64,000 bases of DNA from Escherichia coli (GCF_011045215.1 NZ_CP049201.1); one strand, 5' to 3'. Positions 15,001-21,000 are shown, counted from the stretch's first letter. Numbers are program-made.

Positions 15001-18000
15001 GACGGCAGGTGGCTGGATATCAGTTGTTCCCCCTGTGGCTTTGACCGCGAGGGGGAGCTGATGCTGATACTGCGTTTTAATGGTGAGGTTATCACCCGTA
15101 TTTCCTTCACACTTCTTTACTGGCAGGGGCACCGGATGGTGTTTGTCGGGGGATTGCAGGGGCCTGCAGCGGGGACGGGCACAGCGATTATCCGGGAGGC
15201 CACCCGTGCCTGTTATGGCCTGTTTCCGCGCCGTCTGCTCTGTGAGGCACTGAGTGTGGTGGCAGGGATGTGCGGAGCCGGGGGGATAGTGGCTGTCAGT
15301 GAGGACAATCATGTGATGCGGCAGTTGCGTTATTTTTACCAGAAAAAGGGCCGGTTTGTTGCCCGTTACAGTGAGTGCTGGAAGTCTGCCGGAGGAAAAT
15401 ATTTTGATGGGTTCTGGTACCTGCCTCCGGAACTACCCCGTAAAGATGCCGGTGAAATCCCTGCAAGAAAACGGGCTGAGTACAGAAGGCGAAATGCCCT
15501 GCTTGATGAGGTACGGCGAGGGCTGATGGCTGCACAGCAGAATGGCTGTGATTTCAGAAACACAATAACGCTGATGTAACCAGGATGATGATGAAAAGCT
15601 GTATTCAGGCGGCCCTGATGGCTGCTGTTCTGCCGGGGGTATTCAGTCACCAGGCGGGGGCTGCTGAAGTGTCTGCTGCTCCGGAAGTCAGACGTGAACA
15701 GTCTGTACTGCCGTTTTTCCGGGAGCTGGCAGAAGGTTATGAACTGCCGGAACCATTTGGTGTTAATCTGAATTATATGCAAATCCGGCAGGGGATATCG
15801 GTGGACAGTATCCGGTTTTCCGGGTTACACCTGGGCAGACTTCCTCTGGATAATATTGTACATATTGATGCCGGAAAGACCCGACAGAAAAGTCATACCG
15901 GAACACTCCGGTTTGATGCATGGGTGTTTCCTTTTATGAATCTGTATGGGCTTCTGGGAAAAACAACCGGACAGTCTGTATCAGATATCCGGGTCCGAAC
16001 ACCTCTGTTTACCGGCGGGGCGTTTCCGGGGGCCGGTACACAGAACCTGAAGTTCCGTCTGGATTTTCAGGGAACCACATATGGTGTCGGCACCACCCTG
16101 GTGGGCGGGATGAATAACTGGTTCACCTCGCTGGATGCCAATTATACGCAGACACGCTTTGATATTCTTGATGGTCATATTGATACTGTCACATTCTCAC
16201 CCCGGGTGGGGTATTACTTTGATGTCCCTTCGGTACCGGTACTGCAGAGTTCTGCGGGCAGAATGAGTGTATGGGTCGGGGGGATGTACCAGGATGTTGA
16301 ACAGCGCTTCAGGGGTAAACTGAATGACCTGAATATGCCATCACCTGCACTGCAGGCGGGGTTGTCACAACTGAATAAAACGGGGGATGCGCGTTTTGAT
16401 GTCAGGCAGCATCTGAAAAAACCGTGGAACATGCTGGCTGGCATACGCTATGACCCCAGCCGGCACTTCAGTCTTATCGCCGAAGCGGGGTTTGAAAAGC
16501 GGAAAAGTTTTTTTGTTTCCGGTGAATACCGGTTCTGAACCTGGAGAAGACAGCCCGGTGGATACGGCGATAATATAATTATCGCCGTATCAGGATAAAT
16601 ACCATGATTAGATTCAGCGGGTGCACAAAAAAGAAATAATGCCGGGCTGACGATAATAAAATTTAATATATTAATATCTTTGTGGAATATTTGTTGCAAT
16701 GTGTATGTTATTCCCGCATGCACAGGAGATTATCTATGTGTGACAAAACCATGAAACGCAGGGACAATACCGCATTATATCAGGATGACTGTGAAGCACT
16801 GCTCCTCTGGATGAAATTCCGGGAGGATAAATATGGTGAAGTCTTGTTTCGTGTTATTGATATTGCGTACGGACTGGATATGTCTGTGCGCCAGTGTTGT
16901 ATCTGTCTGAATTTTTTGTATGAAGCCGGACTGGTGGATTACGACGAAAATAATAACAGGTTGTCCAGACAGTGGTTTCTTGTCTGACAAAGACAGGACG
17001 GAAATCTGATATCCGGTAATATCTGAAACGGCATTCATATATTACTGCGGAGTGAATTTCATAACCGGAATAATGCAGTATGGGATATATTACTGACAGA
17101 CAACAGAAAATAAAATGGTTGTTATTTTTGTTGTTATGGTGTTGTCAGGCGCAGGCCGCACTTCCGCTTCCTTTATGGCTGGACGGGAAGGAAATGACAA
17201 CGAGTGCCTGGCCGGTTATGCCTCCGTTATCCCCCCCGGAGGGGTTACGGGCCTGCTGTGCGTTTGGGTATGACCTGGGGGTGAGGGTGCCGTGGCTCCG
17301 TACACCATTGCCATTCTTTCATCTGGACAATGTGGTGGAGGCCGGCAGTACCGGGGGACACCATTACAACGACAGTTTTGTTTCCGGCATGTTGTCTCTG
17401 ACAGGGGGCGGAAGAGAGCATAACGGTATCATTTTCACCACGCAGGGGGGATTTGTTGATACGGCGCATGTCCGTGATACGGCGGATATGACGGTGTTTA
17501 TTTTTACCCGTCTGTGGCCACGTCTGGGGCAGGCGTTTGTGTTGTCTCCGGGCAGAGATGAACTGGCACAACGGCGGCTGGTTTTCCGGGCATTCACTCC
17601 CCCGTCTTCCGTCCGGGACCGTTATGTGCTGGCCGCGGAAATATCAGCCCGTCTGGCATACCAGCTGGCGGTATGGCATGAAATTGCACAGTGGTACGGC
17701 TTCGAATCCGTACCGGGTTATCCTGAAACTGTGTCGGCATTTTCACCGGAGGATCTGTGGTCCAATCTTCTGGGGGCAAGAGTGGCCCTCTCTCTTATCT
17801 TCAGCGGACAGACGGCAGACAGGCGAATGTATGAAACGGCCATGCAGAATGCGCTGAAACAGGTGCTGGTTCATCTGGGAGGTGGCGCGGTGTCCCGTAC
17901 CCGTTTTCAGCTCCGTATGCTGGACAGGGTGTGGTGGAACAGCCGGTGTCTTCTGCCGGACAAGTGGCTGGTGATAAAGCGCAATTATGATGTTGATGCG

Positions 18001-21000
18001 GACCGGCTTCCCGTATCTGTTCCGGGGGGCGATATGAAGCCACTGCGCCTGTCGCTCCCTCTCAGACCGGAAGCCGCGGTGCTGGCGGAATTACAGCTCT
18101 GGCCCGGACAGGACATGAAGCGTCTTCCGGTACCGGAAGGGTATTACACCGGGAAGGATTTTGCGGGGCTGGCGTCCCGGGCCCGGGCCGGGGACAGTGT
18201 CTCCCGTGACAGATTCTGTCCGTGAGAGGGTGTGTTTTGGGTTGCAGGGAGTGGATGTTATGAACATTCAGGTGGAACATCACAGGGGAGCATGGCGTCT
18301 CATTTTACTTCTGGCAGGTATTGTCATACCGGTTTACGGGTACAGTCATGAACTGTCAGGCACTTATGCCAGAATATTAAGTATGCATTTTTCGGATGAC
18401 ATCAGTGCTTCCGGATTGCGGACAGAGGGAGGGGGGAAATATTCCCGCTGGACTGTTCCCTGGCACAGCGAATGTCTGTATGACACGGGGATGGTCTGCT
18501 CCGGGGTGTACCTCAGGGGAAGTTATATTGACCTGAAAGGGGATGTTGATGATGGTGCCGTGGTTCACTGGCGGTCATATGGCACGCTTGTGGGGACAGA
18601 TGTCACCGTCAGGTTGTCTGAACATGTTTCAGTCAGGGGAGGTCTGGGCGTGGGATATGCCCGGGTTCGCAACATGAGTCGCGGGATGGAAGGTGATGAA
18701 AATTATGAAGAGGTGCTGGGGTGGGAGCGAAAAAATGCCCTGATTGTTTCCCCCGAAATCAGCAGTACGATAACGTCCGGTAATTTTACCCTGAGTCCGG
18801 GTCTCTCATTTTTATCCCTGCGTGAATTCTCATCATCCCGTCATGATATTGGTTCGCACGCGGGAAGTTATTCCGTCAGGATGACTTATACGTTCCGGGA
18901 TGTGTTCCGTGTGATGGGGCGCGGAAGTGATGTCATTGTGGAAAACAATACCGGAGGTTTTTACGGTCCGGGCTGGAAAGAAGACCTGGGATTCAGTCTG
19001 GTGAATGAGACGCAACTGTTGTTCAGTATTCCCTTCTGTGTTGGTGGTCATGTTTTCTCTCTGCGTGCCGGGCCGGGCTTCATAAAGGGGAACGGGGGAG
19101 TCAGAGGGGTGTCATTTTCTTTTGGTCTGAAAACATGATGTGAAATCAGAAAAACAACATGAATGATAAAAAGACAGGGACGGCGCTGATACGGAAAATG
19201 ACCATTGACAGGATTATCGAATATATCGAACTTCATCTTGAAAGTGGTAAACGGATGAGCATTCATTCACTGAGTGCTTATTCCGGTTACTGCCGCAGAC
19301 ATCTGCAGCGTATTTTTCTGCTGGAGACGGGAATGCGGCTGGGCGAATATATTCGTCGCAGGCGACTGAGTCGGGCTGCCCTGCTCTGTCGCCTGTCGTT
19401 ACGTGGGTTTCAGGATATTGCCTGTAGTCTGGGATTTGATTCCCAGCAGACATTTAACCGTGAATTCAGGAAAACAGCCGGCGTGACGCCCGGACAGTAC
19501 CGCAGCCAGCCGGAATGGCGGCTTTTGCCGCTGGCAGGTCGTGCCGGCATCTCTTTTTCTGTTCCGGTCCCGGAGAGGGTTCATCTTCCGGAAGGCCGTA
19601 TTGTGGGACGACCACTGACGTTTTCCGGCCGTATACATGAGGTCCGGGATAACGGGGCGGCGGCATTTTCCGAAAGTGTGTTTGCCTGTCAGCAGGAGGC
19701 TCAGTGGTTGGTGGTGACGGCAATAACGCCGGTGGGAGGCAGGAAAGGGGATTATGAGGTCCGTTGTGGTGTGGGCGCACCGGATAACCCGTGCGGAAAC
19801 GTCTTCTCATGGGCCGAGGGGGATTACCTGTCTGTCACGTTTGAGACCACAACGACCACCCATGCGGCCCGTGCAGATTACATTTATATGAACATCCTGC
19901 CCGCTCATGGAGTTGTCCGTACGCCCGGGGTGGACATACTCGTCTTTCGTTACCATGAGGAGCGGGTGTTCTGTACGCTTTACATCCCGGTCAGTTAACC
20001 GGAAGGGCGGTGCCGGAGACAGACATTCAGGGGGGAGTAGTGAAATTTCGCTGATGCTGAATGATGAGTCCGGGGAGGGGCATGAGAAAGAAAACGGCCG
20101 GAGATTGTCAGGCGCGTTATCAGTGGGAGGGAGCGGAGAAATAATGTTTTATAAAAGATTAAAAAACCGGGCATGTGGTTCTGATTAACAGGAGTAATGT
20201 TTTACGGTGTAATATTATGTTCAGGAAAAGATGTTTATTATGTTACCCGGTACTGACCGTGTTATTCTGTATTACATCCTGTGTTCCGCCAGATGAAGCG
20301 ATTTACAGCGGCAGGGAACAGATTATAACAGGAGGGGCAGGTACACCGATATATAAAGAGGACAGTAAAGGACATCAGAAGCGCGATATACGAATGGAAC
20401 GAATCAGGGACCATGGGTGTGAAGATAACAGTACAGACTGTGGCAGACCATTTGGCTGGTAGTTATTGTCAGGAAGCGTCTGGTGTTTATTATTTTTATG
20501 CACACGTCGTGGCAGGGGATTAACAGAAGATGATTTCTGATATGTGTTATTCCTGATTTTTCTCAGGGTTGCGCCGGGTGCTCAGGATATATAGCCAGGA
20601 GAATTCTTCGGGAAGAGGAGAGCCTCTTATTTGTTAATGAGAAAAGCAGAAGTGAATGACTCTTTCATCACAAAAATCCTGACAGGTAATAACGTTCTGC
20701 GTGCTGCAATTGCCCGCATTGAGTGGGTTTTTGAAACATTTCCGTCGGTATGTCTGTCTTTTTCAGGTGGAAAGGATTCCACCGTACTGTTCCATCTTGT
20801 GGCAAATGTGGCCCGCAGGAAAAAACGTCGATTCTCTGTACTGTTCATTGACTGGGAAGCCCAGTACCAGTGTACCGTTGAACATATTCAGAAGATGCGG
20901 AATATGTACGGGGATGTGACGGAGACCTTTTACTGGGTGGCACTTCCCCTGACCACGGTAAACGGTGTCTCACAGTTTCAGCCGGAGTGGATATGCTGGG

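Follow-up and report, generated by a model that had tools for sequence, protein, structure and literature searches.

A plasmid-borne gene block in Escherichia coli as a possible variant of a conserved DUF4056–beta-barrel module of Enterobacterales

We analysed a block of five open reading frames (ORFs), P1 to P5, at 15585-19998 in a 64,000-nucleotide stretch of Escherichia coli DNA (GCF_011045215.1 NZ_CP049201.1; the whole stretch is called the window below). Our favoured reading, which we hold tentatively, is that the block is a plasmid-borne version of an envelope module conserved in Enterobacterales and carries out regulated remodelling of outer-membrane lipids or lipopolysaccharide (LPS). 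The core of the module would be P1, a 10-stranded barrel, paired with P3, an exported enzyme of the DUF4056 family. The first-pass annotation of this region had described four consecutive co-oriented genes; all lie on one strand, as it said, but they are five in number:

15585-16538, + strand: P1, 317 aa; 10-stranded outer-membrane beta-barrel by structural model, with a signal peptide and C-terminal GEYRF; conserved partner of DUF4056
16736-16987, + strand: P2, 83 aa; divergent PapI/FaeA/PefI-like winged-helix regulator; a longer GTG ORF starts at 16682
17080-18225, + strand: P3, 381 aa; DUF4056 (CapCone-DUF4056, Lipocone) predicted exported enzyme with a type-I signal peptide
18260-19138, + strand: P4, 292 aa; probable 12-stranded outer-membrane barrel with a signal peptide; a longer TTG ORF starts at 18161
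19159-19998, + strand: P5, 279 aa; AraC-family regulator of Rob-like architecture

The association of DUF4056 with a barrel and the shf–capU–virK scaffold on which the block sits are already known, in both cases computationally or by analogy only. New here are the plasmid variant itself (Omp85 lost, P4 gained, P2 inserted and an AraC-family regulator added), its placement in the slot of lpxM, and the quantified P1–Omp85–DUF4056 trio.

Results

DUF4056 homologues at 45-63% identity occur across Enterobacterales, and 80 species-representative loci were surveyed, with neighbours taken within 7 kb. The order P1-like gene, Omp85-superfamily gene, DUF4056 gene was present in 69 of the 80 loci, in genera that include Salmonella, Citrobacter, Edwardsiella, Serratia, Photorhabdus and Providencia. 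P1 was present in 74 of the 80 and DUF4056 stood alone in four of the 80. As one conserved operon, the trio shows 45-60% identity from one Enterobacterales family to another, and its Omp85 partner has no detectable POTRA domain. Klebsiella and Raoultella (L063, L083 and L055) carry the trio in another order, Omp85–P1–DUF4056. Homologues of P2, P4, P5, VirK, Shf, the family 4 glycosyltransferase (GT4), FaeA and IbrAB were absent from all 80 loci. In the block itself, Pfam searches identified no Omp85 among the proteins, and the 541-bp interval between P1 and DUF4056 holds P2 instead.

Neighbour-joining trees of P1 and DUF4056 were congruent. In both, the window sequence groups with Escherichia sp. 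E4742 and a contig recorded as "unverified Citrobacter" (L006) in a separate clade beside one Enterobacteriaceae clade. On these trees P1 and DUF4056 co-evolve, and the conserved unit is the pair. The trees also place the Enterobacteriaceae in two clades, each of which includes Kluyvera and Citrobacter species, and therefore imply paralogy or horizontal transfer of the trio. Conservation across genomes, which the first-pass annotation had proposed as a check, is borne out for the core, P1 plus DUF4056; the exact five-gene order is confined to about seven near-identical plasmids.

P1 was predicted by the first-pass annotation to be a beta-barrel ending in EYRF, and this was confirmed. The protein has a signal peptide, a C-terminal aromatic beta-signal and a closed antiparallel barrel, and its model supports a confident assignment as a 10-stranded outer-membrane barrel. 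It is 47-64% identical to the genes upstream of DUF4056 in Salmonella, Edwardsiella and E4742. Identification of P1 as an omptin protease was considered and rejected: the likeness is at fold level only, with no sequence homology to the omptin family. Three distant homologues (~30% identity) lie on short metagenomic contigs with no adjacent DUF4056; they show that the barrel family is wider than its DUF4056 pairing and are otherwise uninformative.

P3 matches Pfam DUF4056 (PF13265) with an E-value of 1.7e-105 and 352.6 bits against a cut-off of 23.6, residues 49-315 aligning to profile positions 3-266 of 266. The first-pass annotation had listed two signal-peptide proteins lacking recognisable motifs, which is wrong for P3 and correct for P4, for which no Pfam family was found. 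DUF4056 has been placed in the Lipocone superfamily as "CapCone-DUF4056" by Burroughs, Nicastro and Aravind (eLife 2025;14:RP108061; bioRxiv 10.1101/2025.01.14.632903). The soluble domains of this superfamily are predicted phosphoesterases or transferases acting on phosphoester-linked lipid head groups, and CapCone-DUF4056 shares its clade with TelC, a lipid II phosphatase toxin (eLife 2025;14:RP108061). P3 retains all residues that are invariant across 22 homologues (GGFxDxxHxRD, WHE and SAxSPED). Among these, G124-F-V-D127-T-A-H130 matches the published G(-6)/xD/H CapCone motif, and S219-A-F-S222-P-E-D225 matches the S/GxxSxx that precedes the conserved helix-4 Asp. Judged by its motifs, P3 looks active. 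No solved relative emerged when the PDB was searched with a DUF4056 profile.

In Enterobacteriaceae and in the window, the DUF4056 N-terminus carries a type-I signal peptidase site (AQA/A). Homologues from Photorhabdus, Xenorhabdus, Enterobacillus, Budvicia and Limnobaculum instead have a lipobox-like N-terminus in which Cys is followed by Q or K (e.g. LVAGCQG, LLTGCQG), a feature that would fit a membrane-held enzyme.

The main neighbour of DUF4056 in the published supplement is an upstream outer-membrane protein (OMP) beta-barrel, with 151 cases (eLife 2025;14:RP108061). The block agrees with this family in that P3 is full-length, keeps the family motif residues and has an outer-membrane barrel gene immediately upstream. 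It departs from the norm in that the usual POTRA-less Omp85 is missing, a lineage-restricted barrel, P4, follows, and a PapI-like gene splits the pair. Furthermore, the block lies on a plasmid, is fused to shf–capU–virK and includes a Rob-like regulator, three features absent from every one of the 80 chromosomal loci.

P4 is modelled as a probable 12-stranded outer-membrane barrel. It contains two invariant Cys residues and an NNTGGFYG motif, is known from only seven protein clusters, and matched no Pfam family at E<=10, Autotransporter (PF03797) included. Compared with known 12-stranded barrels (autotransporter beta-domains, KdgM/NanC and LpxR), P4 shows no sequence similarity and has no passenger domain. 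Only ~30 residues separate the signal peptide from the first strand. An autotransporter beta-domain was rejected on the missing PF03797 match and the missing N-terminal passenger; any likeness is again at fold level only. An apparent homology between P4 and P1 (94% probability when the P4 and P1 alignments were compared by hhalign) was also rejected as an artefact of a chimeric ORF, P0244, whose N-terminus is a P1 remnant.

The block begins 6 bp after virK and forms the distal part of a co-oriented cluster of eight genes at 12237-19998. The first-pass annotation had treated it as a self-contained, regulated surface module. A regulated surface or outer-membrane module, with two predicted barrels, an exported enzyme and two regulators, is supported by our results, but it is not self-contained. 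The proximal genes are as follows:

12237-12452, + strand: FaeA/PapI-family small regulator directly upstream of shf; a longer TTG ORF starts at 12189; Pfam FaeA E 3.9e-12, 46.8 bits against a cut-off of 20.7
12607-13449, + strand: shf/SfPgdA-like polysaccharide deacetylase; Pfam Polysacc_deac_1 E 5e-23; 69% identical to Shf of Shigella pSF5
13453-14556, + strand: CapU/SfGtr4-like family 4 glycosyltransferase; Pfam Glyco_trans_1_4 E 6e-31; 52% identical to CapU of pSF5
14638-15579, + strand: VirK/YbjX (DUF535) protein; Pfam DUF535 E 2.9e-75; 46% identical to VirK of Shigella pSF5

The first three genes of the shf(SfpgdA)–capU(Sfgtr4)–virK–msbB2(lpxM) cluster of Shigella pWR100 and of plasmid pAA of enteroaggregative E. 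coli (EAEC) are found here in the same order and orientation, likewise on a plasmid. The fourth slot differs: lpxM is the next gene after virK on Shigella pSF5, whereas in the window P1 takes that place and P1–P2–DUF4056–P4–AraC follows. Pfam and NCBIfam scans of the block proteins returned no acyltransferase family. The window cluster also differs in having a FaeA-like gene ahead of shf, a gene found at the same position in two related loci (L007 and L092). In Shigella, the shf–capU–virK–lpxM locus is an envelope-remodelling locus, is regulated by PhoP/PhoQ and contributes to lysozyme and neutrophil resistance (PMC7355660).

P4 and a related AraC-family gene were found in few loci, all of Escherichia type. 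Two other lineages also have P1–DUF4056–P4, at 50-63% identity: L006 reads shf–GT4–P1–DUF4056–P4, and E4742 has remnants of shf and virK followed by P1–DUF4056–P4'–AraC, both lacking Omp85. On these arrangements, the linkage of the module to the shf cluster is old. Two further Escherichia loci are deletion derivatives. One (L007) reads virK–[P1'::DUF4056' remnant]–P4–ibrAB, and its called 407-aa gene (P0244, L007:9001-10224) is a chimera that joins N-terminal remnants of P1 to the C-terminal tail of DUF4056 (LQAVNR), with an intact P4 downstream; the chimera marks a deletion of most of P1 and DUF4056. The other (L092) reads virK–P1 N-terminal stub–AraC–ibrAB.

At the left edge of the cluster, two sister plasmids (L001 and L094) have a 301-aa annotated helix-turn-helix (HTH) gene and fragments of a YadA-type adhesin directly upstream of shf. 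The left junction is variable, since the window has PapG-like and FaeA-like genes there instead (11500-12450).

Discussion

Gene identities, predicted folds, motif retention, synteny and co-evolution are observed or computed, and from them we infer a substrate, a direction of action, roles for the barrels and targets for the regulators. P3 would be exported by Sec to the periplasm and would work at the outer membrane with its barrel partner P1, cleaving or transferring phosphoester-linked lipid head groups as predicted for the Lipocone superfamily. P4, the second barrel, with 12 strands, would replace the usual POTRA-less Omp85 partner in this lineage. The module is fused to the 3' end of the shf–capU–virK cluster, at the position of the lipid A acyltransferase gene lpxM (msbB2) on Shigella plasmids, and would end with its own Rob-like activator, P5. 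We favour an envelope-remodelling role because virK lies only 6 bp away and because shf, capU and virK are homologues of a Shigella locus whose next gene is lpxM. Placement in the lpxM slot, inside a locus for lysozyme and neutrophil resistance, is the clearest contextual hint so far that DUF4056 acts on outer-membrane lipids, and the plasmid copy offers a compact, transferable construct for testing the idea.

A more ambitious form of this proposal, which we regard as decidedly unlikely, is that P1, DUF4056 and a second barrel (Omp85 or P4) make up a new outer-membrane machine that works from the periplasmic side and edits phosphoester-linked head groups, whether on LPS, on lipid A or on a carrier-lipid glycan. 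If true, it would represent a new class of outer-membrane lipid remodelling, widespread in Enterobacterales, and in its plasmid form it would be a transferable substitute for lpxM, coupled to both a Rob-like sensor and fimbrial phase variation.

Several results weigh against an envelope-remodelling module. P1 has no evident conserved catalytic set of His, Ser or Asp, and the model of P4 has a confidence of only 65, which is low. The ratio of nonsynonymous to synonymous differences (pN/pS) for DUF4056 against a related Escherichia fergusonii copy is about 1, on 8 substitutions only. Scans of the region found 15 promoters (9.0±3.4 in shuffled background) and 13 terminators (8.2±2.8), neither above background; operon structure is therefore unproven and we make no claim about operon boundaries. 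Escherichia versions often decay (L007 and L092 have deletions, E4742 a truncation), which suggests that the cargo is dispensable. The Lipocone assignment of DUF4056 is itself computational, and no DUF4056 protein has experimental work behind it. Moreover, the sister families CapCone-1, CapCone-2 and TelC are toxins (eLife 2025;14:RP108061), CapCone-DUF4056 is filed under "biological conflict" and not under envelope biogenesis (eLife 2025;14:RP108061 supplement), and a Salmonella DUF4056 gene in a variable region of the type VI secretion system (T6SS) has been proposed as an effector candidate (PMC11669294).

These last points lead to the main rival explanation, that DUF4056 acts as an exported effector directed at the lipids of competitors or host membranes and that the barrels are its export route or provide self-protection. 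We consider this somewhat unlikely. Besides its toxin relatives, its published "biological conflict" label and the T6SS location in Salmonella, CapCone-2 is paired with OMP barrels in predatory bacteria (eLife 2025;14:RP108061). Conjugative plasmids of virulence type carry the module, with adhesins alongside. In type Vd secretion a lipase is paired with an Omp85 barrel, and P4 is modelled with an autotransporter-like barrel fold. Nevertheless, the canonical trio includes no small immunity-like gene and no PAAR, RHS or TPS delivery domains, P3 is a standalone protein with a Sec signal, and the Omp85 partner has no detectable POTRA domain for substrate recognition. The trio's conservation as one operon across families is unlike that of a polymorphic toxin. 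Some DUF4056 homologues are apparently lipoproteins, and PADLOC finds nothing in the block. None of these counterpoints is decisive.

P2 had been described in the first-pass annotation as a small PapI/FaeA-like protein, which holds only at profile level: hhalign aligned it to FaeA with 95.9% probability (E 5.4e-9, 67 columns), and its PDB matches were PapI (2HTJ, best, E 0.01) and PefI (2JT1, E 0.49). P2 had no match to Pfam FaeA (PF04703), and its 31%-identical E4742 homologue reached 18.8 bits against the cut-off of 20.7. A good Shine-Dalgarno sequence precedes P2, and a Pef-like operon carries a paralogue with 81% identity at its 3' end. P2 therefore resembles the PapI/FaeA/PefI co-regulators in its alignments to FaeA profiles and PapI, in a paralogue at a pefI-type position and in the Pap-type GATC pair found in the window (below); it differs in falling under the Pfam threshold, in its length of 83 aa and in being cysteine-rich.

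P1 and DUF4056 are adjacent in relatives, 9-50 bp apart, and are split in the window by the P2 stretch, which is low in GC (0.41-0.46 against 0.50-0.60 in the flanks). We read P2 as a probable later, low-GC insertion into the P1–DUF4056 pair. At the start of this AT-rich insertion, 23 bp 3' of the P1 stop codon, lies a perfect 14-bp inverted repeat with a 3-nt loop (16561-16591, + strand). An 82-nt fold that contains this hairpin has a minimum free energy of -26.5 kcal/mol (z-score -3.67; 0/200 shuffles fold as well), and the repeat is identical in L001 and L094. It has no T-tract and is a possible terminator, attenuator or operator.

The first-pass annotation had called the PapI-like gene an orphan with no fimbrial genes around it. 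This proved incorrect, as a complete Pap/Pix-like chaperone-usher operon lies at ~1967-12139, the true FaeA-family gene follows at 12237-12452, and P2 is 4.6 kb downstream of the operon. The operon's closest records are Pix-type operons (~85% identity), and the best match to the fimbrial region is plasmid NZ_CP010123 of bovine strain C5. Its parts, with minor subunits in addition, are:

1967-2278: PapB-like regulator
2389-2949: major subunit
3728-6304: usher
6434-7165: chaperone
7192-7788: PapJ-like protein
10282-10608: second PapB-like regulator
10568-10975: lipoprotein ORF
11090-12139: PapG/MrpH-like adhesin candidate

In the region 1780-1980, upstream of the PapB-like gene, GATC sites at 1820 and 1922, exactly 102 bp apart, lie in inverted ACGATC boxes, AAACGATCTTTTTA and TAAAAAGATCGTTT. 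We take this pair to be the classical Pap phase-variation switch controlled by Dam, Lrp and PapI. No divergent papI was found upstream of the PapB-like gene, and the operon lacks a papI of its own. The boxes (1820-1925) are a candidate target of the PapI-like proteins, and P2 probably acts in trans on the neighbouring operon's GATC switch. Unlike PapI, P2 lies between two envelope genes, 15 kb from the switch, and is not divergent from papB. The window suggests how a Pap/Pix-type operon that has no papI could obtain PapI function in trans.

This proximity raises the possibility that the block is an accessory to adhesin display, conditioning the outer membrane or LPS for fimbriae and autotransporters under shared PapI/PapB-type phase control. 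A chaperone-usher operon and FaeA/PapB genes adjoin every Escherichia-type copy, two PapI-like genes lie inside the cluster with the canonical Pap GATC switch upstream, and YadA-type and AIDA-type autotransporters and a heptosyltransferase are found nearby on sister plasmids. VirK is linked to autotransporter surface display in Shigella and EAEC, which would also suit such a role. Against it, the 80 species loci carry no homologues of the window's FaeA, shf, GT4, virK, AraC or IbrAB genes within 7 kb, and the block's own intergenic regions contain no GATC sites. The fimbrial linkage could be mere co-residence in a plasmid island bounded by insertion sequence (IS) elements. We judge this explanation improbable.

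P5 is the Rob-like regulator that the first-pass annotation had recognised at the end of the block. It matches Pfam HTH_18 (E 1e-18), and its best PDB match is Rob (E 4e-23), with an alignment over residues 19-164 that takes in the DNA-binding half and some of the linker. Like E. coli Rob, which is also its best NCBIfam match, P5 combines an N-terminal MarA-like double HTH with a C-terminal domain (~160 aa) and is of similar length (279 and 289 aa). It differs in scoring 112 bits, far under the RobA equivalog cut-off of 380, and in a C-terminal domain with no detectable Pfam match to a GyrI-like domain. P5 is only 37% identical to the regulator of the E4742 locus.

Finally, the block might have no integrated function, its five genes being unrelated mosaic cargo assembled by IS-mediated rearrangement and now decaying. 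The DNA of the block is 98.6-99.5% identical to seven conjugative IncF-type plasmids from E. coli and E. fergusonii of cattle and sheep, where annotation recognises a DUF4056 protein and an HTH protein and leaves the other three as hypothetical. Among 5,426 complete E. coli genomes, only 2 were found to have the block. A mosaic would be consistent with the IS-rich region, the compositionally foreign P2 insertion, the frequent deletion derivatives, the restriction of the exact gene order to those few near-identical plasmids and the three distant P1 homologues on metagenomic contigs that are not next to DUF4056. On the other side, the P1–DUF4056 pairing is ancient and co-evolving, P1–DUF4056–P4 recurs in two other lineages, and gene spacing is tight (6, 35 and 21 bp). 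All block genes are intact in the 98.6%-identical E. fergusonii copy, with pN/pS of 0.16-0.39 for most genes and 0.17 for P4, although these values rest on 1-20 substitutions per gene and are weak evidence. We consider a functionless mosaic slightly more improbable than the adhesin accessory.

Other features of the window

Downstream of the block, genes similar to ibrA and ibrB were identified by Pfam matches:

20631-22504, + strand: ibrA-like (PAPS-reductase/DUF3440) and ibrB-like (ParB-N) genes

An IbrA/IbrB-like pair also lies 3' of the cluster in L001, L007, L092 and L094, that is, in every related Escherichia plasmid scaffold seen. Synonymous divergence (pS) of ibrA and ibrB from the E. 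fergusonii copy is 0.11-0.22, far above that of the block (0.00-0.06), which suggests recombination at the boundary between the block and ibrAB. An anti-phage defence role for the block was rejected, as PADLOC matched none of its genes and IbrA alone gave weak BrxP/DndC-like matches; NCBIfam likewise left P1 to P4 unmatched.

Between P5 and the ibr genes, an unannotated 81-aa ORF at 20217-20462 has an N-terminus like that of a lipoprotein (VLFCITSC); L001 and L094, plasmids of the same lineage, have it intact, and the other related loci lack it. An ORF encoding an EAL domain (Pfam E 9e-10) occupies 258-905, at the window's left end and upstream of the regulatory region of the fimbrial operon.

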